This document shows positions 37,437-59,920 of a stretch of 64,000 nucleotides of DNA, in pieces; the stretch's first letter is position 1; every line of letters begins with the position of its first letter. Origin of the DNA: Auanema rhodensis (Eukaryota > Animalia > Nematoda); NCBI GenBank assembly GCA_964057225.1, contig OZ059899.1:11222001-11286000 (forward strand). Direction: 5' to 3'. Under the pieces are notes generated by a model. It ran no database searches. It was not told the DNA's origin and saw only the letters and a list, made by a program, of their open reading frames with translations. A program made the translations under genes and the position numbers.

Positions 37437-37510
37437 TGCCGCCAACAGGGGTCGAACCTGCGACCTTGGGCTTATTAGACCCACGCTCTAACCGACTGAG
37501 CTATGGCGGC
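37437..37510 (-). tRNA. tRNA-Ile(AAT), T-stem G:U variant
   Basis: One substitution. Confidence 0.92.
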
Positions 37511-38100
37511 TACGAAAGTACGAAATAACAAAGCGCTGATTATAGGAAACGTGAATGAATGCAGATATTCTCAATTCCGATTCATTAACTAGATCGTGGT
37601 CAGCATTTTACAACATTGATAAAATAGAAACTGAGAAAAAAACATCAACAAATGACACTATTAACTTGGTTTTTTGAACAGCTTTTTTATATTTCTTTTT
37701 TCACTATGAGAGAACTTATATTTATTGCTTTTTCAAAATTTTCCATTTAAACATTATACATCTTGACTATCACACATTGAGAACAACAGTTGGCAATGTT
37801 GGTTGTCACGTCATATTTCATGCAGTTAGATTTTCAGACACATTAATACCTTTGACCATTCTTGTTATGAGTTTTGTAACGATAGATCGTAATAGGAAAT
37901 GAATTGCTATAATATGAAAAAATACAAGACATAGTCAACATTGATTTCCCCAAATAGTATCATGTTTGCTTGTTATTCAATTAGAACACTTATTTTTTGA
38001 TTGTTTTCTTCAAATATTCTTTTTTTTTTTAACAAAGTTATGACTGAGATCAAAATTTGAACTTACTTTTGAACAATTAAACAGAAATTTAAAAAATATT

Positions 38101-38174
38101 TGCCGCCAGCAGGGGTCGAACCTGCGACCTTGGGCTTATTAGACCCACGCTCTAACCGACTGAGCTATGGCGGC
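38101..38174 (-). tRNA. tRNA-Ile(AAT)
   Basis: Consensus copy. Confidence 0.95.
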
Positions 38175-38764
38175 TACAAAAGTACGAAATAACAAAGCGC
38201 TGATTATAGGAAACGTGAATGAATGCAGATATTCTCAATTCCGATTCATTAACTAGATCGTGGTCAGCATTTTACAACATTGATAAAATAGAAACTGAGA
38301 AAAAAACATCAACAAATGACACTATTAACTTGGTTTTTTGAACAGCTTTTTTATATTTCTTTTTTCACTATGAGAGAACTTATATTTATTGCTTTTTCAA
38401 AATTTTCCATTTAAACATTATACATCTTGACTATCACACATTGAGAACAACAGTTGGCAATGTTGGTTGTCACGTCATATTTCATGCAGTTAGATTTTCA
38501 GACACATTAATACCTTTGACCATTCTTGTTATGAGTTTTGTAACGATAGATCGTAATAGGAAATGAATTGCTATAATATGAAAAAATACAAGACATAGTC
38601 AACATTGATTTCCCCAAATAGTATCATGTTTGCTTGTTATTCAATTAGAACACTTATTTTTTGATTGTTTTCTTCAAATATTCTTTTTTTTTTTAACAAA
38701 GTTATGACTGAGATCAAAATTTGAACTTACTTTTGAACAATTAAACAGAAATTTAAAAAATATT

Positions 38765-38838
38765 TGCCGCCAGCAGGGGTCGAACCTGCGACCTTGGGCT
38801 TATTAGACCCACGCTCTAACCGACTGAGCTATGGCGGC
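38765..38838 (-). tRNA. tRNA-Ile(AAT)
   Basis: Consensus copy. Confidence 0.95.
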
Positions 38839-39430
38839 TACAAAAGTACGAAATAACAAAGCGCTGATTATAGGAAACGTGAATGAATGCAGATATTCTC
38901 AATTCCGATTCATTAACTAGATCGTGGTCAGCATTTTACAACATTGATAAAATAGAAACTGAGAAAAAAACATCAACAAATGACACTATTAACTTGGTTT
39001 TTTGAACAGCTTTTTTATATTTCTTTTTTCACTATGAGAGAACTTATATTTATTGCTTTTTCAAAATTTTCCATTTTTAACATTATACATCTTGACTATC
39101 ACACATTGAGAACAACAGTTGGCAATGTTGGTTGTCACGTCATATTTCATGCAGTTAGATTTTCAGACACATTAATACCTTTGACCATTCTTCTTATGAG
39201 TTTTGTAACGATAGATCGTAATAGGAAATGAATTGCTATAATATGAAAAAATACAAGACATAGTCAACATTGATTTCCCCAAATAGTATCATGTTTGCTT
39301 GTTATTCAATTAGAACACTTATTTTTTGATTGTTTTCTTCAAATATTCTTTTTTTTCTTTAACAAAGTTATGACTGAGATCAAAATTTGAACTTACTTTT
39401 GAACAATTGAACAGAAATTTAAAAAATATT

Positions 39431-39504
39431 TGCCGCCAGCAGGGGTCGAACCTGCGACCTTGGGCTTATTAGACCCACGCTCTAACCGACTGAGCTATGG
39501 CGGC
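39431..39504 (-). tRNA. tRNA-Ile(AAT)
   Basis: Consensus copy. Confidence 0.95.
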
Positions 39505-40095
39505 TACGAAAGTACGAAATAACAAAGCGCTGATTATAGGAAACGTGAATGAATGCAGATATTCTCAATTCCGATTCATTAACTAGATCGTGGTCAGCAT
39601 TTTACAACATTGATAAAATAGAAACTGAGAAAAAAACATCAACAAATGACACTATTAACTTGGTTTTTTGAACAGCTTTTTTATATTTCTTTTTTCACTA
39701 TGAGAGAACTTATATTTATTGCTTTTTCAAAATTTTCCATTTTTAACATTATACATCTTGACTATCACACATTGAGAACAACAGTTGGCAATGTTGGTTG
39801 TCACGTCATATTTCATGCAGTTAGATTTTCAGACACATTAATACCTTTGACCATTCTTCTTATGAGTTTTGTAACGATAGATCGTAATAGGAAATGAATT
39901 GCTATAATATGAAAAAATACAAGACATAGTCAACATTGATTTCCCCAAATAGTATCATGTTTGCTTGTTATTCAATTAGAACACTTATTTTTTGATTGTT
40001 TTCTTCAAATATTCTTTTTTTTTTTAACAGAGTTATGACTGAGATCAAAATTTGAACTTACTTTTGAACAATTAAACAGAAATTTAAAAAATATT

Positions 40096-40169
40096 TGCCG
40101 CCAGCAGGGGTCGAACCTGCGACCTTGGGCTTATTAGACCCACGCTCTAACCGACTGAGCTATGGCGGC
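40096..40169 (-). tRNA. tRNA-Ile(AAT)
   Basis: Consensus copy. Confidence 0.95.
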
Positions 40170-40761
40170 TACGAAAGTACGAAATAACAAAGCGCTGATT
40201 ATAGGAAACGTGAATGAATGCAGATATTCTCAATTCCGATTCATTAACTAGATCGTGGTCAGCATTTTACAACATTGAAAAAATAGAAACTGAGAAAAAA
40301 ACATCAACAAATGACACTATTAACTTGGTTTTTTGAACAGCTTTTTTATATTTCTTTTTTCACTATGAGAGAACTTATATTTATTGCTTTTTCAAAATTT
40401 TCCATTCTTAACATTATACATCTTGACTATCACACATTGAGAACAACAGTTGGCAATGTTGGTTGTCACGTCATATTTCATGCAGTTAGATTTTCAGACA
40501 CATTAATACCTTTGACCATTCTTCTTATGAGTTTTGTAACGATAGATCGTAATAGGAAATGAATTGCTATAATATGAAAAAATACAAGACATAGTCAACA
40601 TTGATTTCCCCAAATAGTATCATGTTTGCTTGTTATTCAATTAGAACACTTATTTTTTGATTGTTTTCTTGAAATATTCTTTTTTTTCTTCAACAAAGTT
40701 ATGACTGAGATCAAAATTTGAACTTATTTTTGAACAATTAAACAGAAATTTTAAAAATATT

Positions 40762-40835
40762 TGCCGCCAGCAGGGGTCGAACCTGCGACCTTGGGCTTAT
40801 TAGACCCACGCTCTAACCGACTGAGCTATGGCGGC
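40762..40835 (-). tRNA. tRNA-Ile(AAT)
   Basis: Consensus copy. Confidence 0.95.
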
Positions 40836-41428
40836 TACGAAAGTACGAAATAACAAAGCGCTGATTATAGGAAAAGTGAATGAATGCAGATATTCTCAAT
40901 TCCGATTCATTAACTAGATCGTGGTCAGCATTTTACAACATTGATAAAATAGAAACTGAGAAAAAAACATCAACAAATGACACTATTAACTTGGTTTTTT
41001 CAACAGCTTTTTTATATTTCTTTTTTCACTATGAGAGAACTTATATTTATTGCTTTTTCAAAATTTTTCATTTTTAACATTATACATCTTGACTATCACA
41101 CATTGAGAACAACAGTTGGCAATGTTGGTTGTCACGTCATATTTCATGCAGTTAGATTTTCAGACACATTAATACCTTTGACCATTCTTCTTATGAGTTT
41201 TGTAACGATAGATCGTAATAGGAAATGAATTGCTATAATATGAAAAAATACAAGACATAGTCAACATTGATTTCCCCAAATAGTATCATGTTTGCTTGTT
41301 ATTCAATTAGAACACTTATTTTTTGATTGTTTTCTTCAAATATTCTTTTTTTTTCTTTAACAAAGTTATGACTGAGATCAAAATTTGAACTTACTTTTGA
41401 ACAATTGAACAGAAATTTAAAAAATATT

Positions 41429-41502
41429 TGCCGCCAGCAGGGGTCGAACCTGCGACCTTGGGCTTATTAGACCCACGCTCTAACCGACTGAGCTATGGCG
41501 GC
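41429..41502 (-). tRNA. tRNA-Ile(AAT)
   Basis: Consensus copy. Confidence 0.95.
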
Positions 41503-42095
41503 TACGAAAGTAAGAAATAACAAAGCGCTGATTATAGGAAACGTGAATGAATGCAGATATTCTCAATTCCGATTCATTAACTAGATCGTGGTCAGCATTT
41601 TACAACATTGATAAAATAGAAACTGAGAAAAAAACATCAACAAATGACACTATTAACTTGGTTTTTTGAACAGCTTTTTTATATTTCTTTTTTCACTATG
41701 AGAGAACTTATATTTATTGCTTTTTCAAAATTTTTCATTTTTAACATTATACATCTTGACTATCACACATTGAGAACAACAGTTGGCAATGTTGGTTGTC
41801 ACGTCATATTTCATGCAGTTAGATTTTCAGACACATTAATACCTTTAACCATTCTTCTTATGAGTTTTGTAACGATAGATCGTAATAGGAAATGAATTGC
41901 TATAATATGAAAAAATACAAGACATAGTCAACATTGATTTCCCCAAATAGTATCATGTTTGCTTGTTATTCAATTAGACCACTTATTTTTTGATTGTTTT
42001 CTTGAAATATTCTTTTTTTTTCTTTAACAAAATTATGACTGAGATCAAAATTTGAACTTACTTTTGAACAATTAAACAGAAATTTAAAAAATATT

Positions 42096-42169
42096 TGCCG
42101 CCAGCAGGGGTCGAACCTGCGACCTTGGGCTTATTAGACCCACGCTCTAAATGACTGAGCTATGGCGGC
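42096..42169 (-). tRNA. tRNA-Ile(AAT) with D-loop GG>AT (likely defective)
   Basis: Invariant G18G19 lost. Confidence 0.8.
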
Positions 42170-42761
42170 TACGAAAGTACGAAATAACAAAGCGCTGATT
42201 ATAGGAAACGTGAATGAATGCAGATATTCTCAATTCCGATTCATTAACTAGATCGTGGTCAGCATTTTACAACATTGATAAAATAGAAACTGAGAAAAAA
42301 ACATCAACAAATGACACTATTAACTTGGTTTTTTGAACAGCTTTTTTATATTTCTTTTTTCACTATGAGAGAACTTATATTTATTGCTTTTTCAAAATTT
42401 TCCATTTTTAACATTATACATCTTGACTATCACACATTGAGAACAACAGTTGGCAATGTTGGTTGTCACGTCATATTTCATGCAGTTAGATTTTCAGACA
42501 CATTAATACCTTTAACCATTCTTCTTATGAGTTTTGTAACGATAGATCGTAATAGGAAATGAATTGCTATAATATGAAAAAATACAAGACATAGTCAACA
42601 TTGATTTCCCCAAATAGTATCATGTTTGCTTGTTATTCAATTAGAACACTTTTTTTTTGATTGTTTTCTTGAAATATTCTTTTTTTTCTTTAACAAAGTT
42701 ATGACTGAGATCAAAATTTGAACTTACTTTTGAACAATTAAACAGAAATTTAAAAAATATT

Positions 42762-42835
42762 TGCCGCCAGCAGGGGTCGAACCTGCGACCTTGGGCTTAT
42801 TAGACCCACGCTCTAACCGACTGAGCTATGGCGGC
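42762..42835 (-). tRNA. tRNA-Ile(AAT)
   Basis: Consensus copy. Confidence 0.95.
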
Positions 42836-43425
42836 TACGAAAGTACGAAATAACAAAGCGCTGATTATAGGAAACGTGAATGAATGCAGATATTCTCAAT
42901 TCCGATTCATTAACTAGATCGTGGTCAGCATTTTACAACATTGATAAAATAGAAACTGAGAAAAAAACATCAACAAATGACACTATTAACTTGGTTTTTT
43001 GAACAGCTTTTTTATATTTTTTTTTTCACTATGAGAGAACTTATATTTATTGCTTTTTCAAAATTTTCCATTTTTAACATTATACATCTTGACTATCACA
43101 CATTGAGAACAACAGTTGGCAATGTTGGTTGTCACGTCATATTTCATGCAGTTAGATTTTCAGACACATTAATACCTTTGACCATTCTTCTCATGAGTTT
43201 TGTAACGATAGATCGTAATAGGAAATGAATTGCTATAATATGAAAAAATACAAGACATAGTCAACATTGATTTCCCTAAATAGTATCATGTTTGCTTGTT
43301 ATTCAATTAGAACACTTATTTTTTGATTGTTTTCTTCAAATATTCTTTTTTTTTTAACAAAGTTATGACTGAGATCAAAATTTGAACTTACTTTTGAACA
43401 ATTAAACAGAAATTTAAAAAATATT

Positions 43426-43499
43426 TGCCGCCAGCAGGGGTCGAACCTGCGACCTTCGGCTTATTAGACCCACGCTCTAACCGACTGAGCTATGGCGGC
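43426..43499 (-). tRNA. tRNA-Ile(AAT), anticodon-stem mismatch variant
   Basis: GCCGA in place of GCCCA. Confidence 0.87.
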
Positions 43500-44091
43500 T
43501 ACGAAAGTACGAAATAACAAAGCGCTGATTATAGGAAACGTGAATGAATGCAGATATTCTCAATTCCGATTCATTAACTAGATCGTGGTCAGCATTTTAC
43601 AACATTGATAAAATAGAAACTGAGAAAAAAACATCAACAAATGACACTATTAACTTGGTTTTTTGAACAGCTTTTTTATATTTCTTTTTTCACTATGAGA
43701 GAACTTATATTTATTGCTTTTTCAAAATTTTCCATTTTTAACATTATACATCTTGACTATCACACATTGAGAACAACAGTTGGCAATGTTGGTTGTCACG
43801 TCATATTTCATGCAGTTAGATTTTCAGACACATTAATACCTTTAACCATTCTTCTTATGAGTTTTGTAACGATAGATCGTAATAGGAAATGAATTGCTAT
43901 AATATGAAAAAATACAAGACATAGTCAACATTGATTTCCCCAAATAGTATCATGTTTGCTTGTTATTCAATTAGAACACTTTTTTTTTGATTGTTTTCTT
44001 GAAATATTCTTTTTTTTCTTTAACAAAGTTATGACTGAGATCAAAATTTGAACTTACTTTTGAACAATTAAACAGAAATTTAAAAAATATT

Positions 44092-44165
44092 TGCCGCCAG
44101 CAGGGGTCGAACCTGCGACCTTGGGCTTATTAGACCCACGCTCTAACCGACTGAGCTATGGCGGC
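44092..44165 (-). tRNA. tRNA-Ile(AAT)
   Basis: Consensus copy. Confidence 0.95.
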
Positions 44166-44757
44166 TACGAAAGTACGAAATAACAAAGCGCTGATTATAG
44201 GAAACGTGAATGAATGCAGATATTCTCAATTCCGATTCATTAACTAGATCGTGGTCAGCATTTTACAACATTGATAAAATGGAAACTGAGAAAAAAACAT
44301 CAACAAAAGACACTATTAACTTGGTTTTTTGAACAGCTTTTTTATATTTTTTTTTTCACTATGAGAGAACTTATATTTATTGCTTTTTCAAAATTTTCCA
44401 TTTTTAACATTATACATCTTGACTATCACACATTGAGAACAACAGTTGGCAATGTTGGTTGTCACGTCATATTTCATGCAGTTAGATTTTCAGACACATT
44501 AATACCTTTAACCATTCTTCTTATGAGTTTTGTAACGATAGATCGTAATAGGAAATGAATTGCTATAATATGAAAAAATACAAGACATAGTCAACATTGA
44601 TTTCCCCAAATAGTATCATGTTTGCTTGTTATTCAATTAGAACACTTTTTTTTTGATTGTTTTCTTGAAATATTCTTTTTTTTCTTCAACAAAGTTATGA
44701 CTGAGATCAAAATTTGAACTTACTTTTGAACAATTAAACAGAAATTTAAAAAATATT

Positions 44758-44831
44758 TGCCGCCAGCAGGGGTCGAACCTGCGACCTTGGGCTTATTAGA
44801 CCCACGCTCTAACCGACTGAGCTATGGCGGC
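44758..44831 (-). tRNA. tRNA-Ile(AAT)
   Basis: Consensus copy. Confidence 0.95.
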
Positions 44832-45423
44832 TACGAAAGTACGAAATAACAAAGCGCTGATTATAGGAAACGTGAATGAATGCAGATATTCTCAATTCCG
44901 ATTCATTAACTAGATCGTGGTCAGCATTTTACAACATTGATAAAATAGAAACTGAGAAAAAAACATCAACAAATGACACTATTAACTTGGTTTTTTGAAC
45001 AGCTTTTTTATATTTCTTTTTTCACTATGAGAGAACTTATATTTATTGCTTTTTCAAAATTTTCCATTTTTAACATTATACATCTTGACTATCACACATT
45101 GAGAACAACAGTTGGCAATGTTGGTTGTCACGTCATATTTCATGCAGTTAGATTTTCAGACACATTAATACCTTTAACCATTCTTCTTATGAGTTTTGTA
45201 ACGATAGATCGTAATAGGAAATGAATTGCTATAATATGAAAAAATACAAGACATAGTCAACATTGATTTCCCCAAATAGTATCATGTTTGCTTGTTATTC
45301 AATTAGAACACTTATTTTTTGATTGTTTTCTTGAAATATTCTTTTTTTTCTTTAACAAAATTATGACTGAGATCAAAATTTGAACTTACTTTTGAACAAT
45401 TAAACAGAAATTTAAAAAATATT

Positions 45424-45497
45424 TGCCGCCAGCAGGGGTCGAACCTGCGACCTTGGGCTTATTAGACCCACGCTCTAAATGACTCAGCTATGGCGGC
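45424..45497 (-). tRNA. tRNA-Ile(AAT) with D-loop GG>AT and a D-stem mismatch (likely defective)
   Basis: Three substitutions in the A-box region. Confidence 0.75.
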
Positions 45498-46088
45498 TAC
45501 GAAAGTACGAAATAACAAAGCGTTGATTATAGGAAACGTGAATGAATGCAGATATTCTCAATTCCGATTCATTAACTAGATCGTGGTCAGCATTTTACAA
45601 TATTGATAAAATAGAAACTGAGAAAAAAACATCAACAAATGACACTATTAACTTGGTTTTTTGAACAGCTTTTTTATATTTCTTTTTTCACTATGAGAGA
45701 ACTTATATTTATTGCTTTTTCAAAAATTTCCATTTTTAACATTATACATCTTGACTATCACACATTGAGAACAACAGTTGGCAATGTTGGTTGTCACGTC
45801 ATATTTCATGCAGTTAGATTTTCAGACACATTAATACTTTTGACCATTCTTCTTATGAGTTTTGTAACGATAGATCGTAATAGGAAATGAATTGCTATAA
45901 TATGAATAAATACAAGACATAGTCAACATTGATTTCCCCAAATAGTATCATGTTTGCTTGTTATTCAATTAGAACACTTATTTTTTGATTGTTTTCTTCA
46001 AATATTCTTTTTTTTTTTAACAAAGTTATGACTGAGATCAAAATTTGAACTTACTTTTGAACAATTAAACAGAAATTTAAAAAATATT

Positions 46089-46162
46089 TGCCGCCAGCTG
46101 GGGTCGAACCTGCGACCTTGGGCTTATTAGACCCACGCTCTAACCGACTGAGCTATGGCGGC
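46089..46162 (-). tRNA. tRNA-Ile(AAT), T-stem mismatch variant
   Basis: One substitution. Confidence 0.87.
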
Positions 46163-46752
46163 TACGAAAGTACGAAATAACAAAGCGCTGATTATAGGAA
46201 ACGTGAATGAATGCAGATATTCTCCATTCCGATTCATTAACTAGATCGTGGTCAGCATTTTACAACATTGATAAAATAGAAACTGAGAAAAAAACATCAA
46301 CAAATGACACTATTAACTTGATTTTTTGAACAGCTTTTTTCTATTTCTTTTTTCACTATGAGAGAACTTATATTTATTGCTTTTTCAAAAATTTCCATTT
46401 TTAACATTATACATCTTGACTATCACACATTGAGAACAACAGTTGGCAATGTTGGTTGTCACGTCATATTTCATGCAGTTAGATTTTCAGACACATTAAT
46501 ACTTTTGACCATTCTTCTTATGAGTTTTGTAACGATAGATCGTAATAGGAAATGAATTGCTATAATATGAAAAAATACAAGACATAGTCAGCATTGATTT
46601 CCCCAAATAGTATCATGTTTGCTTGTTATTCAATTAGAACACTTATTTTTTGATTGTTTTCTTCAAATATTCTTTTTTTTTTAACAAAGTTATGACTGAG
46701 ATCAAAATTTGAACTTACTTTTGAACAATTAAACAGAAATTTAAAAAATATT

Positions 46753-46826
46753 TGCCGCCAGCAGGGGTCGAACCTGCGACCTTGGGCTTATTAGACCCAC
46801 GCTCTAACCGACTGAGCTATGGCGGC
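46753..46826 (-). tRNA. tRNA-Ile(AAT)
   Basis: Consensus copy. Confidence 0.95.
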
Positions 46827-47415
46827 TACGAAAGTACGAAATAACAAAGCGCTGATTATAGGAAACGTGAATGAATGCAGATATTCTCAATTCCGATTCA
46901 TTAACTAGATCGTGGTCAGCATTTTACAACATTGATAAAATAGAAACTGAGAAAAAAACATCAACAAATGACACTATTAACTTGGTTTTTTGAACAGCTT
47001 TTTTATATTTTTTTTTCACTATGAGAGAACTTATATTTATTGCTTTTTCAAAATTTTCCATTTTTAACATTATACATCTTGACTATCACACATTGAGAAC
47101 AACAGTTGGCAATGTTGGTTGTCACGTCATATTTCATGCAGTTAGATTTTCAGACACATTAATACCTTTGACCATTCTTCTTATGAGTTTTGTAACGATA
47201 GATCGTAATAGGAAATGAATTGCTATAATATGAAAAAATACAAGACATAGTCAACATTGATTTCCCCAAATAGTATCATGTTTGCTTGTTATTCAATTAG
47301 AACACTTATTTTTTGATTGTTTTCTTCAAATATTCTTTTTTTTTTAACAAAGTTATGACTGAGATCAAAATTTGAACTTACTTTTGAACAATTAAACAGA
47401 AATTTAAAAAATATT

Positions 47416-47489
47416 TGCCGCCAGCAGGGGTCGAACCTGCGACCTTGGGCTTATTAGACCCACGCTCTAACCGACTGAGCTATGGCGGC
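47416..47489 (-). tRNA. tRNA-Ile(AAT)
   Basis: Consensus copy. Confidence 0.95.
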
Positions 47490-48082
47490 TACGAAAGTAC
47501 GAAATAACAAAGCGCTGATTATAGGAAACGTGAATGAATGCAGATATTCTCAATTCCGATTCATTAACTAGATCGTGGTCAGCATTTTACAACATTGATA
47601 AAATAGAAACTGAGAAAAAAACATCAACAAATGACACTATTAACTTGGTTTTTTGAACAGCTTTTTTATATTTCTTTTTTCACTATGAGAGAACTTATAT
47701 TTATTGCTTTTTCAAAATTTTCCATTTTTAACATTATACATCTTGACTATCACACATTGAGAACAACAGTTGGCAATGTTGGTTGTCACGTCATATTTCA
47801 TGCAGTTAGATTTTCAGACACATTAATACCTTTGACCATTCTTCTTATGAGTTTTGTAACGATAGATCGTAATAGGAAATGAATTGCTATAATATGAAAA
47901 AATACAAGACATAGTCAACATTGATTTCCCCAAATAGTATCATGTTTGCTTGTTATTCAATTAGAACACTTATTTTTTGATTGTTTTCTTCAAATATTCT
48001 TTTTTTTTCTTTAACAAAGTTATGACTGAGATCAAAATTTGAACTTACTTTTGAACAATTAAACAGAAATTTAAAAAATATT

Positions 48083-48156
48083 TGCCGCCAGCAGGGGTCG
48101 AACCTGCGACCTTGGGCTTATTAGACCCACGCTCTAACCGACTGAGCTATGGCGGC
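48083..48156 (-). tRNA. tRNA-Ile(AAT)
   Basis: Consensus copy. Confidence 0.95.
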
Positions 48157-48223
48157 TACGAAAGTACGAAAAAACAAAGCGCTGATTATAGGAAACGTGA
48201 ATGAATGCAGATATTCTCAATTC

Positions 48224-48589
48224 CGTTCCATTCGGAGACTCTATATATGTAACTGCAGGGTTAGAGCCAGACCGACTAGAGGAATGAGGAATGGCACCGC
48301 CTTCCCTCATGCCCCTATTCGGGAGTTCGCCCCTTTGCAAGCCCATGGACGGTTTGCATCTAACTTAGTTAATCTTATATATTAGTCTTTGTCTTGTAAA
48401 TGTAGTTTACTTTATCCTTGTGTTATTGTATTGTAATGATATTGTATTGTGTATAATAAATCTATATATTTCCTTATCTTATGTAATCCTTATGCTCTGT
48501 TTCCATACCGCTACACTTATGGAATACTATACGCGTAGTTGAGCAGACTACAATGGTCTGTTCAATATACGTAGGAGCATAATGGAACG
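48224..48589 (+). repeat. 5' LTR, family B copy 2
   Basis: 9-bp terminal inverted repeat CGTTCCATT/AATGGAACG. Confidence 0.96.
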
Positions 48590-48610
48590 TGGAGGTTCCG
48601 CCTCGAACTC
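48590..48610 (+). promoter_or_regulatory. Primer binding site (tRNA-Gln)
   Basis: TGGAGGTTCCGCC (A>G versus copy 1) immediately after the LTR. Confidence 0.83.
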
Positions 48611-49571
48611 ATTTTTGTCGCAAAAACTCGCATAAAAAGTCCATATTTTGATATCTAAATTAAAACTTCCTCCACGGTTAGCAACATAATGAGGGCGCCA
48701 ACTTGTATAAGGTGCAGGTACAAGGGATCTCTCTTTTAGAGAGCTAGGACTATATAATTTTGAAATTTCACCCGCTGTCCCCTATCATAAAACCGTCTGA
48801 GTGTCCACCCTTATAATACCGTATCCTGCACCGCTTCTTTTGCATTTTTTTTTTTGAGGACGTTTGGATCGAAATAGGGGACAATTTCACCAAACGAAAT
48901 TTTGATTACATTATTATTTGGCAACGAGGAGTTAGAATGAAATTATGAAAGCGCACAAAGTTTAATATTTTATTGTGGTCAGGACTAGAAATTTGAAAGT
49001 TAAATTCAGGCGTAAAAGAGCATGCTAACTAAATATTTTTGCGGGAGCCGTTATTCGGTTTTTATTTTTTTTTTTTGATTGTGAGAATAGACCACACTAG
49101 TCCGAAAAATCCTGGCACAAATTTTATTGCCTGTCAGGTCATTTTGGCGAAAGCACATGGGCTACGGATGTTTTCTTCTCCGTAGAATGTGTCACCTTCC
49201 TCAGCTCATTTTTGTTGCTAACATCATAAGATATTCCCACACACCTACCGTAGTATTCATATTGTAATATTCTATAAATTAGTACAATGGTTTAAAGAAA
49301 AAATTGCGTTTTATAAACGAGCTTTGGTCTCAGTCCATTAGTAAAATGAGCAATCTTTTTAAATATTCTCGGAATCTCATTAGCATGCCAAAATCATTCC
49401 GAAAAAGAATCGCCCACGGCTTTTAATAATCAACGTGCACATGAGCCATTTTCCCAAGGCGCACGCACTCCTTCTTTATTAATAAGCTCGACCAAAGTTT
49501 GTGTTATGAAAAAAAAAAGAGAGAGAGAACAAATGAGTGAAATTAAGTATTTATTATATATGAAACAATTG

Positions 49572-50105
49572 TTAAAAGCCCCATTTAAAATGCAACTGTC
49601 TCACAAATTCTATAGGCTGTGAGATGGGCTCATCGCTAGGCTCTAAATACTGCGAATACACTGAATCCGCAGAGGTCCTTAGCAATAAGCCCATAGGAGA
49701 CTGTTCATAAAATAAATAAATTTTAAACAAAATTTTAGACATATAATCATAAAAATCATGAGACTTATGCTCATACCAATTCCAAGGGGATGCGACTAGA
49801 TTTGGGTTTTCATACCAATGCGCGCACAAGTCGGTGAGGCACCATCGCCGGATAGCTGCAACCTCATCCGCTATTTCCTGCATTAGGGAGAAGTTTACTA
49901 ATCCCCTTCCCAGATAATGCATCTTTAAATCCTCAATAAACTAAAAATTCTTATTAACATAACATGTTTCTTTGTTTTAACCAACCATCTTAATTATGTC
50001 TGGGTGCGGCCTATAAGCTAACACTTCGTCTTGATCATACAAGACGAGGTCAGCGTACAGCTTCCTCAAGACAAAAGTCATTCCCGATAGACCTTCATAA
50101 GCCAT
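49572..50105 (-). CDS. Spliced antisense accessory gene (exon 1 50105-49986, intron 49985-49941, exon 2 49940-49572; 162 aa)
   Basis: Same exon-intron structure as 2553-3086; 5 amino-acid differences; frame intact. Confidence 0.75.
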
Positions 50106-50516
50106 TCTTTGATTTATTTTTTTTTCAGCTCTACAAATATAAAGATTCTTATGCATAAAAAGGGGACATAAAACGACTGAAAATCTCTCTCATACTTTCA
50201 AGAATTCAATTAGAGTAAAGTATTAAGATTGAGGCTAGAAAGAGCGAAGACCAACAAAATTTATAATTGATGAACATCTGTGAAAAAGAATAAAGAAAAG
50301 AGAATACGGTAGATAGGCGGAGCCAGATCTCAGGCCAAGATTTTAAAACTCTTTCTCATCTAATAACGATTCTCGGCGAAAGACGCCACGTCTCAATCTT
50401 CAAACTTTTCTTACTTTTCCCTATAACCGACCTGAATTTCTTGTCACTCATTCAACGTCAACATCCCCCATATAACGAAACACTCGCGGTTTTTCCAAAC
50501 CAAGAGTGATTCCAAA

Positions 50517-53500
50517 GTGGCACGAAGATACTCTTCGGCCGTCCCTGCTCTATACCCTTCTGAGTCCAGTGACGACATCGCAGTCGCCAGTCGAACCAGA
50601 AGCCGCACTCGACTCCTCAGTGTTCAGATTGAAGAGCCTGAACAAGAGGTAAAACCCAAAGTCGAGAAAACCTTCATTCCTCGAGAAGGCACGTATTCAC
50701 CTCCGGACAACACCGAGGAGGACCCTGATTTCTATATTCAGGACTACAATATTCAAACTTCAGCTTCAACTCCAAAGGTACACTCTTTTAAAAGTAATAA
50801 AAAGATTCAAAAAATTCAAAAACCAAAACAAATAACCTCTAATACTTCACCAGCCACTCCCCACCTAAACTTATCAACTTTATCAGTTAATACTGATAAC
50901 GATCTTGCATCTTCTTTTGAACTAACTCTAACACCGCAGGCATTTTCCACTCCGATAGAAAACTCACAACTTAATAAAACCTCATCTCTCACTATTCGCA
51001 AATCACCCTTATCAGTTATCACTGATAAGCTTGATTCGAAAAAGCTTGATTCTAAAAAAATTAATAAAAGAAAAACTAATACACCGCGTAGGCGCTCAAC
51101 CTCTAATAATCCCGTAGAACCAAATCAGGAAATTACCGAAGTTTTGCCCTTATCACTAACTACTGATAAGTTCAAAAGTAAGAAATCTTTAACAGCTCGC
51201 TTAATAAAAGTTTTGAATTTGTCTCCAGGGGAGGTAACAACAGAACAAGTTGATAACTCTCTTCACGTATCCTCCAACCCAACCCTTAATAAGTCAGATA
51301 GCGCTATACCCAGCTCAAGCGTATCAATACATTCGACGCCTCAGGCAACGAGTCGAATTATCAAACTCCCAGGGAAGCGGTTCTCCTCAGCCGCCCCTAC
51401 CATTAGTTATCCAACATCTGGTAACTCGAAAAAGGGAGGTAAGAATTTAACGGCGAGAAGCTCAGGCAGTAAAGGGATTACGTCATCTCGCACATACCCT
51501 GAGGATATACCAACCATGACGGAGACACCACGTCTTCCGGGAGCTGGTAAATCTACCATTGCGCACGCATTAAGCTCACCTTATTGCCCCATATACGACG
51601 GAAGTCGTAACTTTAGAGATTTCGTGGCAAAGTTTAATACCTTTTCTAACGCCTTAGGCTTAGTGATGCCCGAAAGACTAACTATTTTACCATTACTATT
51701 GAAAAATGATAGAGCAGAGGAAGCTTATTTAGAGCTACCTGACAAGGTCAGAACAGCTGGACCTTGGGTTACCCTAATAGAAGAGTTAACATCCAAGCTG
51801 TGTCCCGAATACAATCAAGACCCTGCCCTTATCACACTTCAAAACAGCACTCAAGGCGATTTATCAATTGATGGTTTTGCACAAACGTTAAGAAACCTCA
51901 GCTTAAATGCTTTCTCTAATAGTGATACTCATAAAGATCACATTCTGAGGTCCACATTTTTGAGAGGCTTGAAAAATACGATACGCCCAGGGGTAATTCG
52001 AGCAAAACCCAAAACTTTTGCTGAGGCTGTTGATAGTGCTCGCTGGGAGGAATCAATTACAAACCAAGTAGCAGACCCTCAGGCGCTATTGGTTAACGCA
52101 ATTGAAAGAACTTTCCCCCCGCGCAGAAACAATGGTGGGAGAGGTATGGCAAGAGGTTATCAATCTTTTAATAATAAAAATTATCAAAATTATAATAATT
52201 ATAACAATTATCATCCAAACTTTCAAAACAATCAAAATTATCATAAATTTTCAAAAAATCAAAAAGGCTGGAATTTCCAAAACCCATTTGCTAGGAACCG
52301 CAATTTTGGTGACCGCGGTCGAAATTATCAGAATCAAAATCAAAATGGGTATCAAAGAAGCCATAATGCATCACAAAATCAAGAAATGAGCAATAATAGA
52401 CAGAGAAATAACAGTACCTTTAGGGGAAATAACAACAATAGAGGCAGAGGTAGAGGCTCAAGAGTCAATAATTTGACTCTGATATCTCCTTTGACTTTAG
52501 CCGTAGCTTTATCAGTAATCTTATCACTGGTTACAACAGCTGAAGCATACCAGCTATGTACTAAAGCTACTGGAGGAGCGCTTCTCCGTCCCCCATCTCT
52601 CCGAAAATGCTTATTACCACCAATAAAGCATATCTTACGAACAAAAGTTCATCTTTATACAAGGAATCAAACGGCACATGAATGGGATGCATGGAGATGC
52701 TCCAAAGAAATTCATAAAATGTGTATCAGAGACCTTTTGTTCCTTAGAGATACCAATACAACGATAGCGAGAATTGAAAAGATACCAGCTGCAGAATGCA
52801 GACTGGCAGTGAGAGATAGAAGATGGAATTGGAGTGAATTAAAGAAGATTGACAGCATAACATATGCAACTGACGAGCCTTCCTTCTCGCCAGGCCGATC
52901 TTTTAATAATGAACTATGTAAAGAGAAAGCTAGATTGGTTATCGAAAGAGGGGCTATGACACGGATGCCAGATGAAACTATAATCTCCAATTTAATACTA
53001 AATACTGAAGGATGCTTAGCGCATCATGGAGAATGTGCATCAGATACTTCAATCATCATATGGGAGAAACAGCCTTATGAATATCGATGCAACTATATCG
53101 ACATGAGTGAATATGATGCGATAATTGGAGACGGCATTATTCTGTTACCAACCACTCAATCAGCCCTTGTAATCGATCAAAAAGAGATACCGAAGCAAAT
53201 ATCTTCTTGTTTTAAACAGCCAATCTTCCACACCACGACTGGCAATTACATTCTTTTACCACAGTACCCAAATGACACCAATATCCCTGTTTTAATAGAG
53301 AGAGAATATAAGAAACTTCCGGCGAAAAGAGATAAAAGAGCAATTGCGGAATGCACGGTTGAATTAAACAAGGAGTGGATACAAAAACAGGAAGATTTTG
53401 AAACTTTAATATTAAATATTTGTCCTTATCCTTTCTTACGACCGGTGATGAGTAATCCTGGTATTTATCAGATAATACCGCTTATAAAGGCCAGACGAGC

Positions 53501-56500
53501 TGTCAACCCTTCATATTCAATTATTGATTGGGTTTCAGCACATCCTGAGAAGTTTTATTTCTTCTTAAGAAGTCCCGTATCTGATAAATCCATACAACGT
53601 TTCCTTCAAACATACGAAATACACGACCCTGAGGAAGCAATACTTTATTTTCTTGCGCAAAAGGAATTGGCAGCAACCACTCGCGGCGCTATACGGTATT
53701 TAACCTCACAACAATTATTAGAACAGATAGGTGACAGATTAACAGCACACGAATTTGACGAAAAACTACTAGAAAAGGATGGATCCTACTGTGAAAGAGC
53801 CGAAAGCATAGCGATGGAGCTAGCTTATACACCGGTAATATTTGAAAACAATCTGTCGGTACCATCGAGGCAAGAGGTTTTAAAATCCTTTGTGAACATG
53901 CCGCCTATCCGACCAACTTTAACAACTGACAATGCTGATGAGCGTATAGTACTTAGGAATACTCTTTACTTATACCATAACTTGATGACATTGCGAGTAA
54001 TAAGGCCAAATAAAACAGCAGCAGCCGTAGATGATGAAAAGTTCCGACAATTAACAATCAATGTGCCAGATACCAACAAACTATATCGAGATAAAGATTC
54101 TAACTACGGTATATCGATAGGCCCCCACCCTCGCATTCAAACTCCAAGCGCGGATACACGCCAGCTACTTATAAAAACATTTTTACCACTGTTAGAGGAT
54201 ATTGAAACACCGCCTTATCTGACTAGAAGACTGTCATTAACGACAACAACGGACAAACCCGCTTCACTAGTTCAGGAGACAACTATAAGCTATACGACTC
54301 GGATTCCGACGACAACCATAGTTGACACGACAACAGCCGTGATAACTACGACTCTCTCGCCAACAACATTAGCAACAGTCACTGACACGGCGTCACGAAC
54401 CTTAAGGAAACAAAGAACATCATCTCCACCCGTAGAAACCAGAGAAATTCAGGCTCAGGCAACGTATACAGCGTCAAAAGTGAACAACGAAATACAATTC
54501 AACCTCAACGTATCTCGCAGAATAGCTCAAGATCATCTACAATATACAACAACACTCATACAAGAAGAGCTACAGAAACGTTTTATGGAATCTTATGAAT
54601 CCATATGTGAGATTCAAAATAGATACCTCGAGCTATGGCGTTCTATTTTACACATAGAACCCACAATAGCAATGAGGACTATTTTAGGAAGAGAGGATAT
54701 TGCAGCCCGTTTCGTAGGCAGCGATATAGTTCATGTTCATATATGCTTACCTCTTCAACCTAAAGCTGTTTATCATAATCATAAGATCAATGATACATGC
54801 TATTTGGAAACACCAGTAATAACAGAAGATGAGAGATTATATTTTGCTGCTCCAGGATCAAGAGACTTATTAACACATGGAAAAGAGATAGATTGCGAAC
54901 ATGTACCAACAGATGTGTACTATCAAAATGGAGAATGGATAAATATAAATGGATCGGTTGAAGTAAAACCAATATCACTCTTTGATAAAGCGCAATACCA
55001 CCAATTAACACCTTTAAAGTTCACATGCGCTAACTTATACACCAATTTATCATTGAGAGTTTACTCAATGTCAACAGCTATTGCATATGGAGCAAGTTTA
55101 GCATCCATACAACAGAACCATGTTTTACATACTATTCACAACGATCCAAAGATTACGTCAGCCTTTAATCTTTTGAAAAAGGGCAGTGACTATATCTCTA
55201 AAGCAGCTGAGTTCACAACTTCCGCCTGGACTAGCGTAAAACAATTTCTAATAGGTTCAATTGAGAGAACACTCATCTTTATAGGATCAATAGTCACGAT
55301 TGCCGCAGTATTAATAATTCTTTTCGTTGTTGCTAAATTTTGGTTCTTCAGAGCCACTCCACTAACCGTAATGCATGTCCATGAAATAGATAATGAGCCC
55401 CCAGGCTATGAAGAAACATTGGAACTTGTAAGCCGCCCAGACCAACAGATGCCAGATAACATCATGAAGCAATACTATCCTGCGTTAGTAACATTTATTC
55501 CAATCGCAATACCATTTGTTGCTTCTATTGCATCAGCGGAAACAAAGTTACCATTAATATATATATCAGTTGAAGATAAACTGATTTTAGCTTTATGGGA
55601 TTCAGGCTCATCAGTGTCATATGTTAGGCTCTCCACCCTCAAATATCTGAACATGGCCGAAAATGTCAAGAAGAGACATTTAGTAGCGATGGCAGCCAAC
55701 AAGTCCACTTTCACATTTTATGGAAAGATAAATCTTGTAATTGAAATTGCCGGCTACGAGATCGAACACACATTTTTGGTCTCAAACGATCATGACTGTC
55801 CTGCTCCCGCTTTAATTGGACTAGATTTCATGAAAGCGCTTGACAGCGAAAACATCGACGTCAGCCTTAAACCATCCAAGAAGAGGTTGGAGATTGGAAA
55901 CAATGCCATCCCATTAATAGGAAACGAATCTATTAAGCATACGGAGATAACTGTGAATATCATTAATTTAAGAACAAAAACATTAAAGCCTGATGAAGAG
56001 GCACCTATCCCAATAAAGACAGATAAACCACTAGAATCTAACGAAGTGGTTGTCTTAGGGGATAGTGGAAGCGCATTAAAATCATTATATCCAACTGCGT
56101 TTCGTGATACCAGTGGAGTATATGTTATGTTCCGTAACGATACCGATGAAACAATAGCTATGGAAGCTAATTCAGTCATCGGGCAGGCAATAATTGGAGA
56201 AATTCCGGCTTGTGAACCCTTTAAGCATAAGCCAATTCTACCATATGTTCCGCCAGAAGCCGATTGGGAGAGTAAACTACCATATTTTCCAAGACACTTC
56301 ATAAAAGATCTTGATCTAGAGAATGCTGATCTCACGAAAGAAGAAAAACATGAGCTTACAAAAATAATTGAAAGCCATCGTGAGGCATTTCTTAACGAGG
56401 ACAGGAAAATAGGATTATTTAAAGGTCCTATAGAGCATACCATACCATTGAGAACAGATATGGATATGCCAAAGCCGAGAATAACACGTATTCCCTTAGG

Positions 56501-59222
56501 AAAACAGGAAGAAATTGAAAAGCAAGTCAAAGAAATGCTTGAGCAAGGCATAATAGAGCCTTCTACATCTCTATTTAATAGCCCTGTAGTACTAGTTAAG
56601 AAGAAAGATGACACGTATAGGTTTGTGACAGATTTTCGAGCTTTAAATAATGTCACACGCAAGCAAACTTATGTCATTCCAAGCATTTCTGACATAGTTG
56701 ATTTGGCAGCAGGCGCCCAATTTTTCTCAAACTTCGATTTAGTGTCAGGATTTTTTCAAATATCCTTGAGAAAATCAGATCGACCACTAACAGCATTTAC
56801 GACCACATCCGGCACATACCAGTACAAACGGATGCCGATGGGCCTTTGTGGAGCCCCTCATACCTTTCAAACAGCAGTAAGGTATTTGCAAAGTAAATGT
56901 TCTTGTAAACTATTTGTTTACTTGGACGATCTATTAGTTATATCTGATACAAGAGAACAACATCTCAAAGATATCGATGATTTACTGCAAGCAGTAGAAG
57001 AATTGGGAATGAAGATAAAGCTTAAGAAATGCGCTTTTGCTCAACCAGAAGTGAAATTTCTAGGACTTATTGTAGGACGTCAAGGTATAAAACCTGACCC
57101 TCAAAAAGTCGCCGCCATACAAGATTATCCGGCACCAAAGAATGCAACAGGTGTACGAGCATTCTTGGGAATGGTTGGATTCTTTCGCAAATTCATGAAA
57201 GATTTTGCACGTATCGCAAGCCCTTTATACGATCTGACAAAGGCAGATACTGAATTCAAATGGGAAAACAAACAAAAAGAAGCTTTAGACCTCCTTAAAA
57301 GAAGTTTAATACAGGCACCCGTTTTAAGCCCACCTAAATCGGACCGCTTGTTTATAGTTGAAAGCGACGGTAGTAACATCGCCATAGGTGCTGTATTATT
57401 ACAACCGGAAGATCCAAAACAACCTCTGAAAAATCTACACCCTATCGCATTTGCAAGCAGAAAACTAGTTAAAGCCGAACGTAACTACGCACCAATCGAG
57501 ATAGAAGCATTAGGCCTTGTATATGCATTAAATCAATTCCGTACATACATTCTTGGAACTCATACTATATGTATTACGGACCATCGACCCCTTACCAGCT
57601 TAATGACACGCAGAGACTTATTTGGTCGTCTTGCGAAGTTCCAGCTGGTCATCCAAGAATATGATATTGAAATAAAATATCGCGCAGGCCAATTAAATAA
57701 AGTATGCGATGCTCTATCTCGATATATAGGTAAAGAAGCTAACGATGCTAAGCCGGAAACAAAGAAGAAGAAAATGGAAGAAATTCACATTAACGCCATA
57801 AATACACCAACAATAAAGGAAATTCAACTGAACACCCCTTGGATTAAACGAACGATAGCGGAGATTGAATATAGAGCACAAAAGAACATGACAGCTAATG
57901 ACAGATATTGTGTCATAAACGACTTGCTATATACAAAACCGACAGACAAAAAGCCACAACCCGCTATCGTAATACCACAAGAACACCCCATAATTGAGGA
58001 AATAATCAAAGTTTTTCATGAGGATCCTACAATTGCAGCACATCAAGGAATTATTAAAACAAAAGAAGCAATTCTAAGAAGATTCTATTGGACAAATATG
58101 CAGAACGACATTACTATATTCATCAAGAACTGCATTAAATGTGCTCAAAGAAAAAAAGATCCACATTCCATGACGGTACAACCAATAGGTCATTTTGAGA
58201 TACCAAGCAAGCCATTTGAACGAGTCCACATGGACGTAATGGGACCATTTCCCCCTTCAAAAAGAAACTGTACCTACGTCATTACCATGCAAGACGCATT
58301 TACAAAATGGTCAACAACAATTGCTGTACCACAAATAACAACGGAAATCACAATTGACCGATTTCTAAGACATTTCGTTTACATTTTTGGACCACCCCAT
58401 CGCTTGATCACCGATAGAGGTTCGAACTTTGTATCTAAAAAGTTCGAAGAAATGTGTACTAAACTTGGAATCAAACATGAACCAACACTACCACACCAAA
58501 AGAACTCAAATGGACAAGTGGAAAGACTTCACAGAACCCTCGAAGAAGGATTAACCCACTACTTAAAAGAGGACCTTAGTGACTGGGATACTATATTACC
58601 AAAAATCACTTTTGCTATTAACAATATTCAGCACGCGACTACAGGGATTGCGCCATACATTGCATTATTCGGTAAAGAATGCAGAATGTCAATGGACGCT
58701 GAATTACCAGAAACGATCACCAAAATTCAAGAAATTTCTGAAGAATTACTCCAAAGAAGACCAGATATGGACAAGAGAGACGAAATAATAAAGAACCGCA
58801 TAGCTAAAAATCAAGAAAATGCGAAAAAGAAGAAAGATAGAACGCAAAGAGCACACCATAGAGACATTCAACCGGGCGACATGGTGATGACGACTATAAA
58901 ATCACACCAAATCGGCCAAAAGCTTCGGAAAAGCTATGATGGACCATACGAAGTCATCAACGTAGAAGGATCAAAAGTTCAAATCAGAAATTCATCAGGA
59001 AAACTACAAGATATCCACAAAGATAACTTGAAAATCTTCTCTCCTGCTTCACAAAACATCTCTTACAACACTCGCGCAAGGTTTCGAGAAAGTCAAGCAG
59101 AAGAAGATAGCGACATCGAAATAATAGAAGTGATCAACAGGAACAACAAGGATAGCATAGATACAGAGCCAGAAGATGAAAATGAAGACGAAATATGGCT
59201 TCCGAGGAATGAAGAAGAATAA
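50517..59222 (+). CDS. gag-env-pol: Gag-Env-Pol polyprotein (capsid; signal peptide; gB-like class III Env; TM; aspartic protease; RT; RNase H; integrase)
   Basis: PIYDG/FLRGL capsid motifs; signal peptide ending at 52547; KRDKR at 53325; gB-like motif at 54606-54747; TM ~55270-55350; DSG at 55599; YLDD at 56919; ESDGS; HHCC; DDE; GPY. The first ATG is at 51516, so the true start is uncertain. Confidence 0.95.
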   Translation: MARRYSSAVPALYPSESSDDIAVASRTRSRTRLLSVQIEEPEQEVKPKVEKTFIPREGTYSPPDNTEEDPDFYIQDYNIQTSASTPKVHSFKSNKKIQKIQKPKQITSNTSPATPHLNLSTLSVNTDNDLASSFELTLTPQAFSTPIENSQLNKTSSLTIRKSPLSVITDKLDSKKLDSKKINKRKTNTPRRRSTSNNPVEPNQEITEVLPLSLTTDKFKSKKSLTARLIKVLNLSPGEVTTEQVDNSLHVSSNPTLNKSDSAIPSSSVSIHSTPQATSRIIKLPGKRFSSAAPTISYPTSGNSKKGGKNLTARSSGSKGITSSRTYPEDIPTMTETPRLPGAGKSTIAHALSSPYCPIYDGSRNFRDFVAKFNTFSNALGLVMPERLTILPLLLKNDRAEEAYLELPDKVRTAGPWVTLIEELTSKLCPEYNQDPALITLQNSTQGDLSIDGFAQTLRNLSLNAFSNSDTHKDHILRSTFLRGLKNTIRPGVIRAKPKTFAEAVDSARWEESITNQVADPQALLVNAIERTFPPRRNNGGRGMARGYQSFNNKNYQNYNNYNNYHPNFQNNQNYHKFSKNQKGWNFQNPFARNRNFGDRGRNYQNQNQNGYQRSHNASQNQEMSNNRQRNNSTFRGNNNNRGRGRGSRVNNLTLISPLTLAVALSVILSLVTTAEAYQLCTKATGGALLRPPSLRKCLLPPIKHILRTKVHLYTRNQTAHEWDAWRCSKEIHKMCIRDLLFLRDTNTTIARIEKIPAAECRLAVRDRRWNWSELKKIDSITYATDEPSFSPGRSFNNELCKEKARLVIERGAMTRMPDETIISNLILNTEGCLAHHGECASDTSIIIWEKQPYEYRCNYIDMSEYDAIIGDGIILLPTTQSALVIDQKEIPKQISSCFKQPIFHTTTGNYILLPQYPNDTNIPVLIEREYKKLPAKRDKRAIAECTVELNKEWIQKQEDFETLILNICPYPFLRPVMSNPGIYQIIPLIKARRAVNPSYSIIDWVSAHPEKFYFFLRSPVSDKSIQRFLQTYEIHDPEEAILYFLAQKELAATTRGAIRYLTSQQLLEQIGDRLTAHEFDEKLLEKDGSYCERAESIAMELAYTPVIFENNLSVPSRQEVLKSFVNMPPIRPTLTTDNADERIVLRNTLYLYHNLMTLRVIRPNKTAAAVDDEKFRQLTINVPDTNKLYRDKDSNYGISIGPHPRIQTPSADTRQLLIKTFLPLLEDIETPPYLTRRLSLTTTTDKPASLVQETTISYTTRIPTTTIVDTTTAVITTTLSPTTLATVTDTASRTLRKQRTSSPPVETREIQAQATYTASKVNNEIQFNLNVSRRIAQDHLQYTTTLIQEELQKRFMESYESICEIQNRYLELWRSILHIEPTIAMRTILGREDIAARFVGSDIVHVHICLPLQPKAVYHNHKINDTCYLETPVITEDERLYFAAPGSRDLLTHGKEIDCEHVPTDVYYQNGEWININGSVEVKPISLFDKAQYHQLTPLKFTCANLYTNLSLRVYSMSTAIAYGASLASIQQNHVLHTIHNDPKITSAFNLLKKGSDYISKAAEFTTSAWTSVKQFLIGSIERTLIFIGSIVTIAAVLIILFVVAKFWFFRATPLTVMHVHEIDNEPPGYEETLELVSRPDQQMPDNIMKQYYPALVTFIPIAIPFVASIASAETKLPLIYISVEDKLILALWDSGSSVSYVRLSTLKYLNMAENVKKRHLVAMAANKSTFTFYGKINLVIEIAGYEIEHTFLVSNDHDCPAPALIGLDFMKALDSENIDVSLKPSKKRLEIGNNAIPLIGNESIKHTEITVNIINLRTKTLKPDEEAPIPIKTDKPLESNEVVVLGDSGSALKSLYPTAFRDTSGVYVMFRNDTDETIAMEANSVIGQAIIGEIPACEPFKHKPILPYVPPEADWESKLPYFPRHFIKDLDLENADLTKEEKHELTKIIESHREAFLNEDRKIGLFKGPIEHTIPLRTDMDMPKPRITRIPLGKQEEIEKQVKEMLEQGIIEPSTSLFNSPVVLVKKKDDTYRFVTDFRALNNVTRKQTYVIPSISDIVDLAAGAQFFSNFDLVSGFFQISLRKSDRPLTAFTTTSGTYQYKRMPMGLCGAPHTFQTAVRYLQSKCSCKLFVYLDDLLVISDTREQHLKDIDDLLQAVEELGMKIKLKKCAFAQPEVKFLGLIVGRQGIKPDPQKVAAIQDYPAPKNATGVRAFLGMVGFFRKFMKDFARIASPLYDLTKADTEFKWENKQKEALDLLKRSLIQAPVLSPPKSDRLFIVESDGSNIAIGAVLLQPEDPKQPLKNLHPIAFASRKLVKAERNYAPIEIEALGLVYALNQFRTYILGTHTICITDHRPLTSLMTRRDLFGRLAKFQLVIQEYDIEIKYRAGQLNKVCDALSRYIGKEANDAKPETKKKKMEEIHINAINTPTIKEIQLNTPWIKRTIAEIEYRAQKNMTANDRYCVINDLLYTKPTDKKPQPAIVIPQEHPIIEEIIKVFHEDPTIAAHQGIIKTKEAILRRFYWTNMQNDITIFIKNCIKCAQRKKDPHSMTVQPIGHFEIPSKPFERVHMDVMGPFPPSKRNCTYVITMQDAFTKWSTTIAVPQITTEITIDRFLRHFVYIFGPPHRLITDRGSNFVSKKFEEMCTKLGIKHEPTLPHQKNSNGQVERLHRTLEEGLTHYLKEDLSDWDTILPKITFAINNIQHATTGIAPYIALFGKECRMSMDAELPETITKIQEISEELLQRRPDMDKRDEIIKNRIAKNQENAKKKKDRTQRAHHRDIQPGDMVMTTIKSHQIGQKLRKSYDGPYEVINVEGSKVQIRNSSGKLQDIHKDNLKIFSPASQNISYNTRARFRESQAEEDSDIEIIEVINRNNKDSIDTEPEDENEDEIWLPRNEEE

Positions 59223-59263
59223 CAACAAGATAATGCTACGTTATTTAAATTATTGTAACAAAA

Positions 59264-59739
59264 TAACGATGAATTAGAAAAAAAAAATTAATGCTAAATA
59301 ACATTCAAAATAAAAATAGCATTTAATAGAGATTGAGAAAGGAAAAATAAGGCAAATTCTAAACGAGGAGATGTTATGACTAATGGTTCCAAGTTACCGT
59401 AATCCTATGCGGACTAGAGGACATTTTGACAACCATCCGAGCTCCATGTGCCTCTCCAAATAAGATGAGATAAACACTGGTAGGCGTATAAATCACAATT
59501 TCATCTTAAGTGGTAGTCTCCATTAGTAATCAAGGATTCACTCTGGGAGACATATGGAGATACATTATTAAATCATAATCTCGGTTCAATTTAGAAATGA
59601 GTACTTCTTGAGACCATTAGTCAAAATAATAACATATTCCCATTCATTACTAGCCCCTTATTCTACAATCTCTATTAGGAAATGCTTGAATATTAAGATA
59701 ATTAATTTATGAAATTAATAATATTCTAATTCATCGTTA
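59264..59739 (+). other. Long rod-like RNA secondary structure in the 3' UTR
   Basis: At least nine nested complementary segments, including 16-, 12- and 11-bp perfect pairs. Confidence 0.8.
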
Positions 59740-59909: not shown

Positions 59910-59920
59910 GAAAAAGGGCA
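59910..59920 (+). promoter_or_regulatory. Polypurine tract
   Basis: GAAAAAGGGCA directly before the 3' LTR. Confidence 0.75.

Follow-up and report, generated by a model that had tools for sequence, protein, structure and literature searches.

The window, a stretch of 64,000 nucleotides of Auanema rhodensis DNA (contig OZ059899.1, positions 11,222,001 to 11,286,000), holds a tandem array of host tRNA-Ile(AAT) genes (Table 1). Four inserts break this array: 1-4434 on the minus strand, 5877-8518, and two full-length LTR elements at 18603-29273 (family A) and 48224-60286 (family B). Because dozens of near-identical empty array units lie around each insert, the pre-insertion sequence is exactly known. 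The 50-copy array (4435-64000) is homogeneous, its four transposon insertions are young and it is possibly a safe-harbour region. Within it, some 1.9 kb (11726-13600) are inverted, with two tRNA genes on the opposite strand, and one unit (36794-37587) has about 124 bp duplicated internally. The insert at 5877-8518 is a MULE-type DNA transposon (its Pfam MULE match, at E 4e-05, falls below the cut-off); its terminal inverted repeats are imperfect, its TSD measures 9 bp and it sits within a tRNA-Ile gene. The hallmark of Ty3 is that its insertions occupy one fixed position, at the start of the tRNA. The three LTR-element insertions of the window lie at differing distances from tRNA genes (68 bp upstream, 43 bp downstream and 85 bp downstream), so Ty3-like position-specific tRNA targeting is not indicated.

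Table 1. Positions of the array, the LTR elements and their parts within the window.
Feature	Position	Strand	Remarks
Host tRNA-Ile(AAT) tandem array	4435..64000	-	unit ~667 bp; 50 genes, one per unit
Second family B copy	1..4434	-	cut by window edge; different target site; 99.2% identical to full copy
Family A element	18603-29273	+	
Family A 5' LTR	18603..19019	+	TG...CG; left TSD AAAC at 18599-18602
Family A gag-env-pol region	18950..27813	+	interrupted; five open frames
Family A PBS	19020..19037	+	tRNA-Gln type; adjoins terminal CG directly
Family A integrase Lys	26581..26583	+	foamy-virus Pro214 position
Family A 3' LTR	28857..29273	+	TG...CG; preceded by short purine run and CA; right TSD GAAC at 29274-29277
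Family B element, full copy	48224-60286	+	
Family B left TSD	48220..48223	+	ATTC; compared with empty array units
Family B 5' LTR	48224..48589	+	CG...CG; perfect 9-bp terminal inverted repeat
Family B PBS	48590..48602	+	tRNA-Gln type (by the accessible part of PMC13524379 supplement 1); adjoins terminal CG directly
Family B single ORF	50436..59222	+	2928 aa; first Met at 51516
Family B integrase Lys2689	58500..58502	+	foamy-virus Pro214 position; catalytic D2600, D2660, E2696
Family B polypurine tract	59910..59920	+	followed by CA, presumably a 2-nt processed overhang
Family B 3' LTR	59921..60286	+	CG...CG
Family B right TSD	60287..60290	+	ATTC

The two LTRs of the full family B copy are identical at 366/366 positions and read CGTTCCATT...AATGGAACG. 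Its flanks alone are ambiguous, in that the empty site goes on with CG and permits a TSD of 4-6 bp. LTR identity, however, begins at CG in three contexts, namely this target, the polypurine tract and a second target that lacks CG there; family B therefore starts with CG and its TSD is 4 bp. A TSD of 5-6 bp was rejected because it clashes with the LTR-LTR ends and with the third LTR copy, the 5' LTR of the second family B copy (4069-4434, minus strand; 365/366 against the full-copy LTR). The sequence-only reading had given the coordinates of the family B 5' LTR exactly. It had also stated that TSD, PBS and polypurine tract fix the boundaries; the boundaries stand, but the family B flanks do not suffice for this on their own, and LTR identity and the third copy were needed. 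The PBS of the full copy differs at one base (48600) from that of the second copy and of public contigs. The PBS match (48590-48610, 4048-4068) extends for about 13 nt; the next bases, TCGAAC, are presumably complementary to a tRNA T-loop motif, and a two-part primer site is possible. The single ORF comprises a gag-like region, a gB/monjivirus-type fusion glycoprotein, protease, RT, RNase H and integrase. Env lies between the gag-like region and pol: its domains (Monjiviricetes_fusion, E 8e-15; Glycoprotein_B, E 9e-09; aa 1365-1508) are upstream of the protease (aa 1711), and only the Glycoprotein_B match is below the curated cut-off. No Pfam gag match was found in this ORF, and the gag-like region is 33% conserved between families A and B. 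Ahead of the first Met the frame is open for 360 Ser/Thr/Pro-rich codons (50436-51515), and no ORF that starts with Met and reaches 60 aa lies entirely within the leader.

The coding region of family A is divided among frames at 18950-19621, 19539-20783, 20657-22636, 22637-26269 and 26104-27813, with the same gene order as in family B. An extra open frame of 239 aa (27942-28661), without a Pfam match, is situated between the integrase and the 3' LTR. The LTRs are identical at 414/417 positions and read TGTTACAT...AATGGAACG. Compared with the empty site GAAC, the flanks (AAAC left, GAAC right) give a 4-bp TSD with one substitution. GT...GG ends would yield a perfect TSD, but they are at odds with the other junctions and were rejected. 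The 4-bp TSD claimed previously thus holds, as a perfect ATTC in family B and with a mismatch in family A that had gone unmentioned.

All boundary pairs within 8 bp that are compatible with the empty site, at no more than one mismatch, were enumerated. TG...CA appears at none of the 58 admissible boundaries of family B and at none of the 23 of family A. Further junctions were found in public contigs; these are one-sided, and some of the runs may include the window's own source. Among the matches listed (four runs and three studies for each family), at least one family B LTR contig (X1) parts from the window sequence at precisely 48224, where a foreign flank of 79 nt takes over, at least two A-like contigs (X5) begin at 28856/28857, the first of them sharing one base by chance, and at least one A-like contig (X9) stops at 29273 with a 15-nt flank. 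The same ends are kept at these junctions at other sites, at least four in number. The family B U5-PBS junction is spanned by at least seven to eight contigs in two runs. A sister LTR about 90% alike is present among the public contigs listed, and therefore further families share the same end. None of the runs listed with matches is on record as RNA, a fact that has no bearing on expression. Scans of viral contigs gave no match to the U5+PBS pattern, and two protein scans of such contigs gave no loci. The sequence-only reading had allowed that other insertions might restore TG...CA; neither the enumerated boundaries nor the four junctions at other sites do so, and the ends that it proposed, CG...CG for family B and TG...CG for family A, are borne out by LTR identity, empty sites and those junctions.

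Judged by their coding sequences, families A and B are sister families. Their POL is 54% identical in amino acids over protease-RT-RNase H, with 65% DNA identity over 2.4 kb of pol, and the LTRs are alignable only at the terminal/PBS stretch. The earlier description of unrelated LTR bodies with a shared end therefore applies at the DNA level, but the elements themselves are close relatives. The chance of a given 9-mer at an LTR end is about 2e-6 from LTR composition. As POL identity and integrase-tree grouping make A and B sisters, the shared 9-bp end would most simply be inherited, by descent rather than convergence; convergence of unrelated families was rejected owing to the 54% POL identity. 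Both families have the order PR-RT-RNase H-integrase of Ty3/gypsy elements (Metaviridae), together with paired LTRs, a PBS, a polypurine tract, which is short in family A, and a TSD within the 4-6 bp range. TG...CA termini, usual but not universal in Ty3/gypsy, are present in neither, and neither has the AGT...AnT ends of errantiviruses. Among POL proteins that have the same set of domains, the closest are GAG-ENV-POL proteins of Diploscapter and Caenorhabditis, at 46-52% identity; the POL of families A and B groups with nematode members (quick tree, SH-aLRT 93), and several relatives carry PF03732. These homologues suggest a rhabditid nematode as the likely host. The GAG-ENV-POL order has been reported for nematodes (Chary and Hayashi, excerpts of PMC13524379, citing Sacco et al. 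2022). In the same excerpts, a tRNA-Gln PBS starts at the LTR end or one base inside it in 8/11 Caenorhabditis rows (among 30/36 nematode rows), and the PBS 12-mer found here is identical to a Gln entry in the accessible part of supplement 1. Families A and B are members of this known group of nematode Ty3/gypsy elements with GAG-ENV-POL order and a tRNA-Gln primer site.

For retroviral integrases, the CA at the 3' terminus is described as invariant, on a basis that is only partly understood. On the joined strand, the U3 end of family A reads ...ATGTAACA, and its U5 end and both ends of family B read ...ATGGAACG. The penultimate C is constant at all ends and the final purine alone varies, so that the motif ATG(G/T)AAC(A/G)-3' fits all of them. 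The U3 end of family A is canonical, with ...AACA-3' on the joined strand, and fits the general gypsy consensus TGTTRNR...YNYAACA (excerpt of PMC3601003); its U5 end is CG. Since family A was joined via CA at U3 and via CG at U5, a relaxed reading of C plus a purine is favoured over a switch to CG, and on these sequences the integrase has likely been relaxed in this way. The altered end specificity postulated earlier is upheld in that CG ends are joined, but it needs restating as a likely relaxation, as CA is also joined in family A. On the element-internal side of the joined strand, TG follows every end in both families: the 3' LTR is separated from the purine tract by CA, and the PBS opens with TG straight after the U5 end. 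In distant gypsy controls, the U5 end is CA in 9/9 loci (five families), with a spacer of 1-4 nt. These derive from a metagenome scan that gave 78 gypsy loci at 23-40% identity, 48 of which (at least 3.5 kb with a pol match) were screened for flanking repeats; the nine were chosen by eye for a repeat ending just ahead of the PBS, and in one the 3' copy ends with the contig. None of the 78 loci matches this env, and none has a usable tRNA-Gln LTR junction. With a probability of about 0.6, we read A and B as two sister env-carrying Ty3/gypsy families with ends TG...CG and CG...CG, respectively, whose shared integrase type joins any C+purine 3' end. It counts against this reading that only two insertions have both flanks and that one of the two TSDs is mismatched.

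The integrase was compared in an alignment of 101 cores, two from the window and 99 core-covering rows from 78 proteins and 78 loci; the nematode relatives P0009, P0011, P0060 and P0076, which lack the core, were left out. Across the active-site loop, the core aligns with PFV integrase without gaps. Chains of the PFV and Ty3 intasomes match the predicted fold (E down to 3e-17); the model has a pLDDT of 82, with the loop as its low-confidence part (pLDDT ~64-76). At the position of foamy-virus Pro214, Lys occupies 7/7 rows of the window's clade and 0/94 others; among the latter, 74/94 have Pro and 20/94 do not. At the position of Lys228, which we take to be the equivalent of HIV Lys159, contacting the terminal adenine, Glu is present in 7/7 clade rows versus 5/94 others. 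His at the Asn224 position was rejected as a mark of the clade, being present in 21/94 others. The Pro214-Gly218 segment of PFV parts the viral DNA strands and stacks on the terminal adenine, and the scissile dinucleotide runs over Pro214 (excerpts of PMC6784120 and PMC3395085). In RSV, Ser occupies the Pro214 position, yet the ends used are CA (excerpt of PMC7955051). The Lys label changes once on the integrase tree (quick tree, support 93), and therefore no covariation with CG ends can be shown from it. Inspection of integrase residues near the terminal base, as had been suggested, thus yields a clade-specific Lys, against which stand RSV and the single event; the loop Lys is an unproven candidate cause of CG tolerance. 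Outside the Lys-loop clade, metagenome contig L001 carries at 106-11205 a single-frame gypsy polyprotein of 3700 aa (P0015) with a fusion-glycoprotein domain.

The U5 sequence TGGAAC is complementary to GTTCCA of the PBS and forms a 6-bp hairpin in family A and in the second family B copy. The shuffle p values of the stem, which are not independent as the copies are related, are 0.007 (A), 0.013 (second B copy) and 0.057 (full B copy, 5-bp Watson-Crick). By acceptor-stem symmetry, the freed 5' strand of the tRNA-Gln acceptor stem is another possible partner of U5 TGGAAC, and U5/PBS pairing may be part of the reason why the 9-mer has outlasted the LTR body. Taken further, such pairing offers an alternative in which an ordinary gypsy integrase is mildly tolerant and its loop Lys is incidental; the U5 motif would be held by RNA pairing, with the PBS or the tRNA-Gln 5' strand, while the terminal G drifted to fixation. 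The 6-bp stems, longer than the 2-5 bp stems of the nine control loci, favour this account, as do plant elements tolerating single-base departures from TG...CA (excerpt of PMC5659011) and RSV, which keeps CA without the Pro (excerpt of PMC7955051). However, the terminal G is unpaired in the stem, hence not selected by pairing, CG also occurs at the family B U3, out of reach of the PBS stem, and the stem of the full B copy is shorter, with p values that are non-independent throughout. We consider this account unlikely, although it fares best among the alternatives.

A second alternative is that the integrase has switched to a preference for CG and that the CA end of family A is a tolerated leftover. 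CG at three of the four end types, the 9-bp symmetry of family B, whose identical LTRs mark a recent insertion, and the clade specificity of the loop residues would all suit such a switch; but the U3 end of family A is CA in the window and at at least two further A-like junctions, so that CA has been joined repeatedly, and we hold the switch to be improbable. That the CG ends are an artefact of boundary placement or assembly and the real ends are TG...CA is scarcely credible: although the family B junction taken alone is ambiguous, with an empty site continuing with CG, and the family A TSD has a mismatch, none of the 81 admissible boundaries gives TG...CA, three B LTRs and two A LTRs are concordant and contigs of three studies span the same B U5-PBS junction.

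Under the preferred reading of a relaxed C+purine integrase, CG would have arisen in the common ancestor when the terminal A of U5 underwent a transition to G. Family A would retain this asymmetric state, and family B would have gained the same end at U3 later; the direction from the A state to the B state rests on CA being ancestral in general rather than on a sampled close outgroup. The CA between polypurine tract and LTR may represent a 2-nt overhang lost by 3' processing at U3, and the U5 end may be blunt, or may carry these two bases as well where some of the tRNA primer end is kept. Asymmetric end processing has a foamy-virus precedent (excerpts of PMC6784120 and PMC3395085). The weakest step would be to tie CG tolerance to the clade-wide Pro-to-Lys change in the integrase loop. 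A bolder proposal, which we put forward tentatively and consider rather doubtful as a whole, is that a whole rhabditid clade of Ty3/gypsy elements with env is no longer bound by the CA rule, owing to a remodelled active-site loop of the integrase that carries Lys where foamy virus has Pro214 and Glu where it has Lys228, that the shift started at a U5 end shaped by tRNA-Gln primer pairing, and that A and B are two stages in the rewriting of the att site from CA to CG.

The nematode group and non-TG...CA ends in general were already known; the CG variant, which we did not find in print, may be new. The rule of TG...CA with few exceptions, from which the sequence-only reading started, is less strict than it supposed, as exceptions are published for several lineages and the surprise is accordingly smaller. 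CG termini were not found by targeted literature searches and may be on record in Repbase, Dfam, Ganko et al. 2001 or Sacco et al. 2022; for nematode LTR ends, the literature search found nothing. As had been pointed out, LTR finders requiring TG...CA would miss A and B; this is a logical consequence and a known problem for other non-canonical families, and nematode env-bearing elements of this group would go missed or mis-bounded. With one element joined via CA and CG, a sister with CG at both ends and a clade-specific loop change, the CA rule becomes directly testable.

The elements can be compared with four known systems. Like other nematode GAG-ENV-POL elements, A and B have env between a gag-like region and pol, a gB-type glycoprotein and a tRNA-Gln PBS at the LTR end; the accessible text of PMC13524379 mentions neither terminal dinucleotides nor TSDs, and CG ends are not described in it. 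The integrases of PFV and Ty3 (PDB 3L2Q, 7Q5B) share the DD35E fold and are the best sequence and fold matches, and PFV has a 4-bp stagger, matching the TSD length here (excerpts of PMC6784120 and PMC3395085). The differences lie in the loop, which is (His/Gln/Tyr)-Lys-(Asn/Ser/Ala) in the window's clade and His-Pro-Gln in these enzymes, and in the ends, which are C+purine as opposed to the invariant CA of PFV and Ty3. Plant non-TGCA elements, for example Tos17 (TG-GA), TARE1 (TA-CA), AcCOPIA1 (TG-TA) and the TGTT and AACA families (excerpt of PMC5659011), resemble family A in being asymmetric with one canonical side; they are mostly Copia or TRIM and none in the excerpt is listed with CG, whereas family B has symmetric ends, neither of them canonical. 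In the Drosophila errantiviruses gypsy, ZAM and Idefix, with AGT...AnT ends (excerpts of PMC5408687 and PMC3601003), an entire Ty3/gypsy clade is off the TG...CA rule, as with A and B. Errantiviruses, however, have another motif and the order GAG-POL-ENV, whereas A and B keep the penultimate C and change the last base from A to G.
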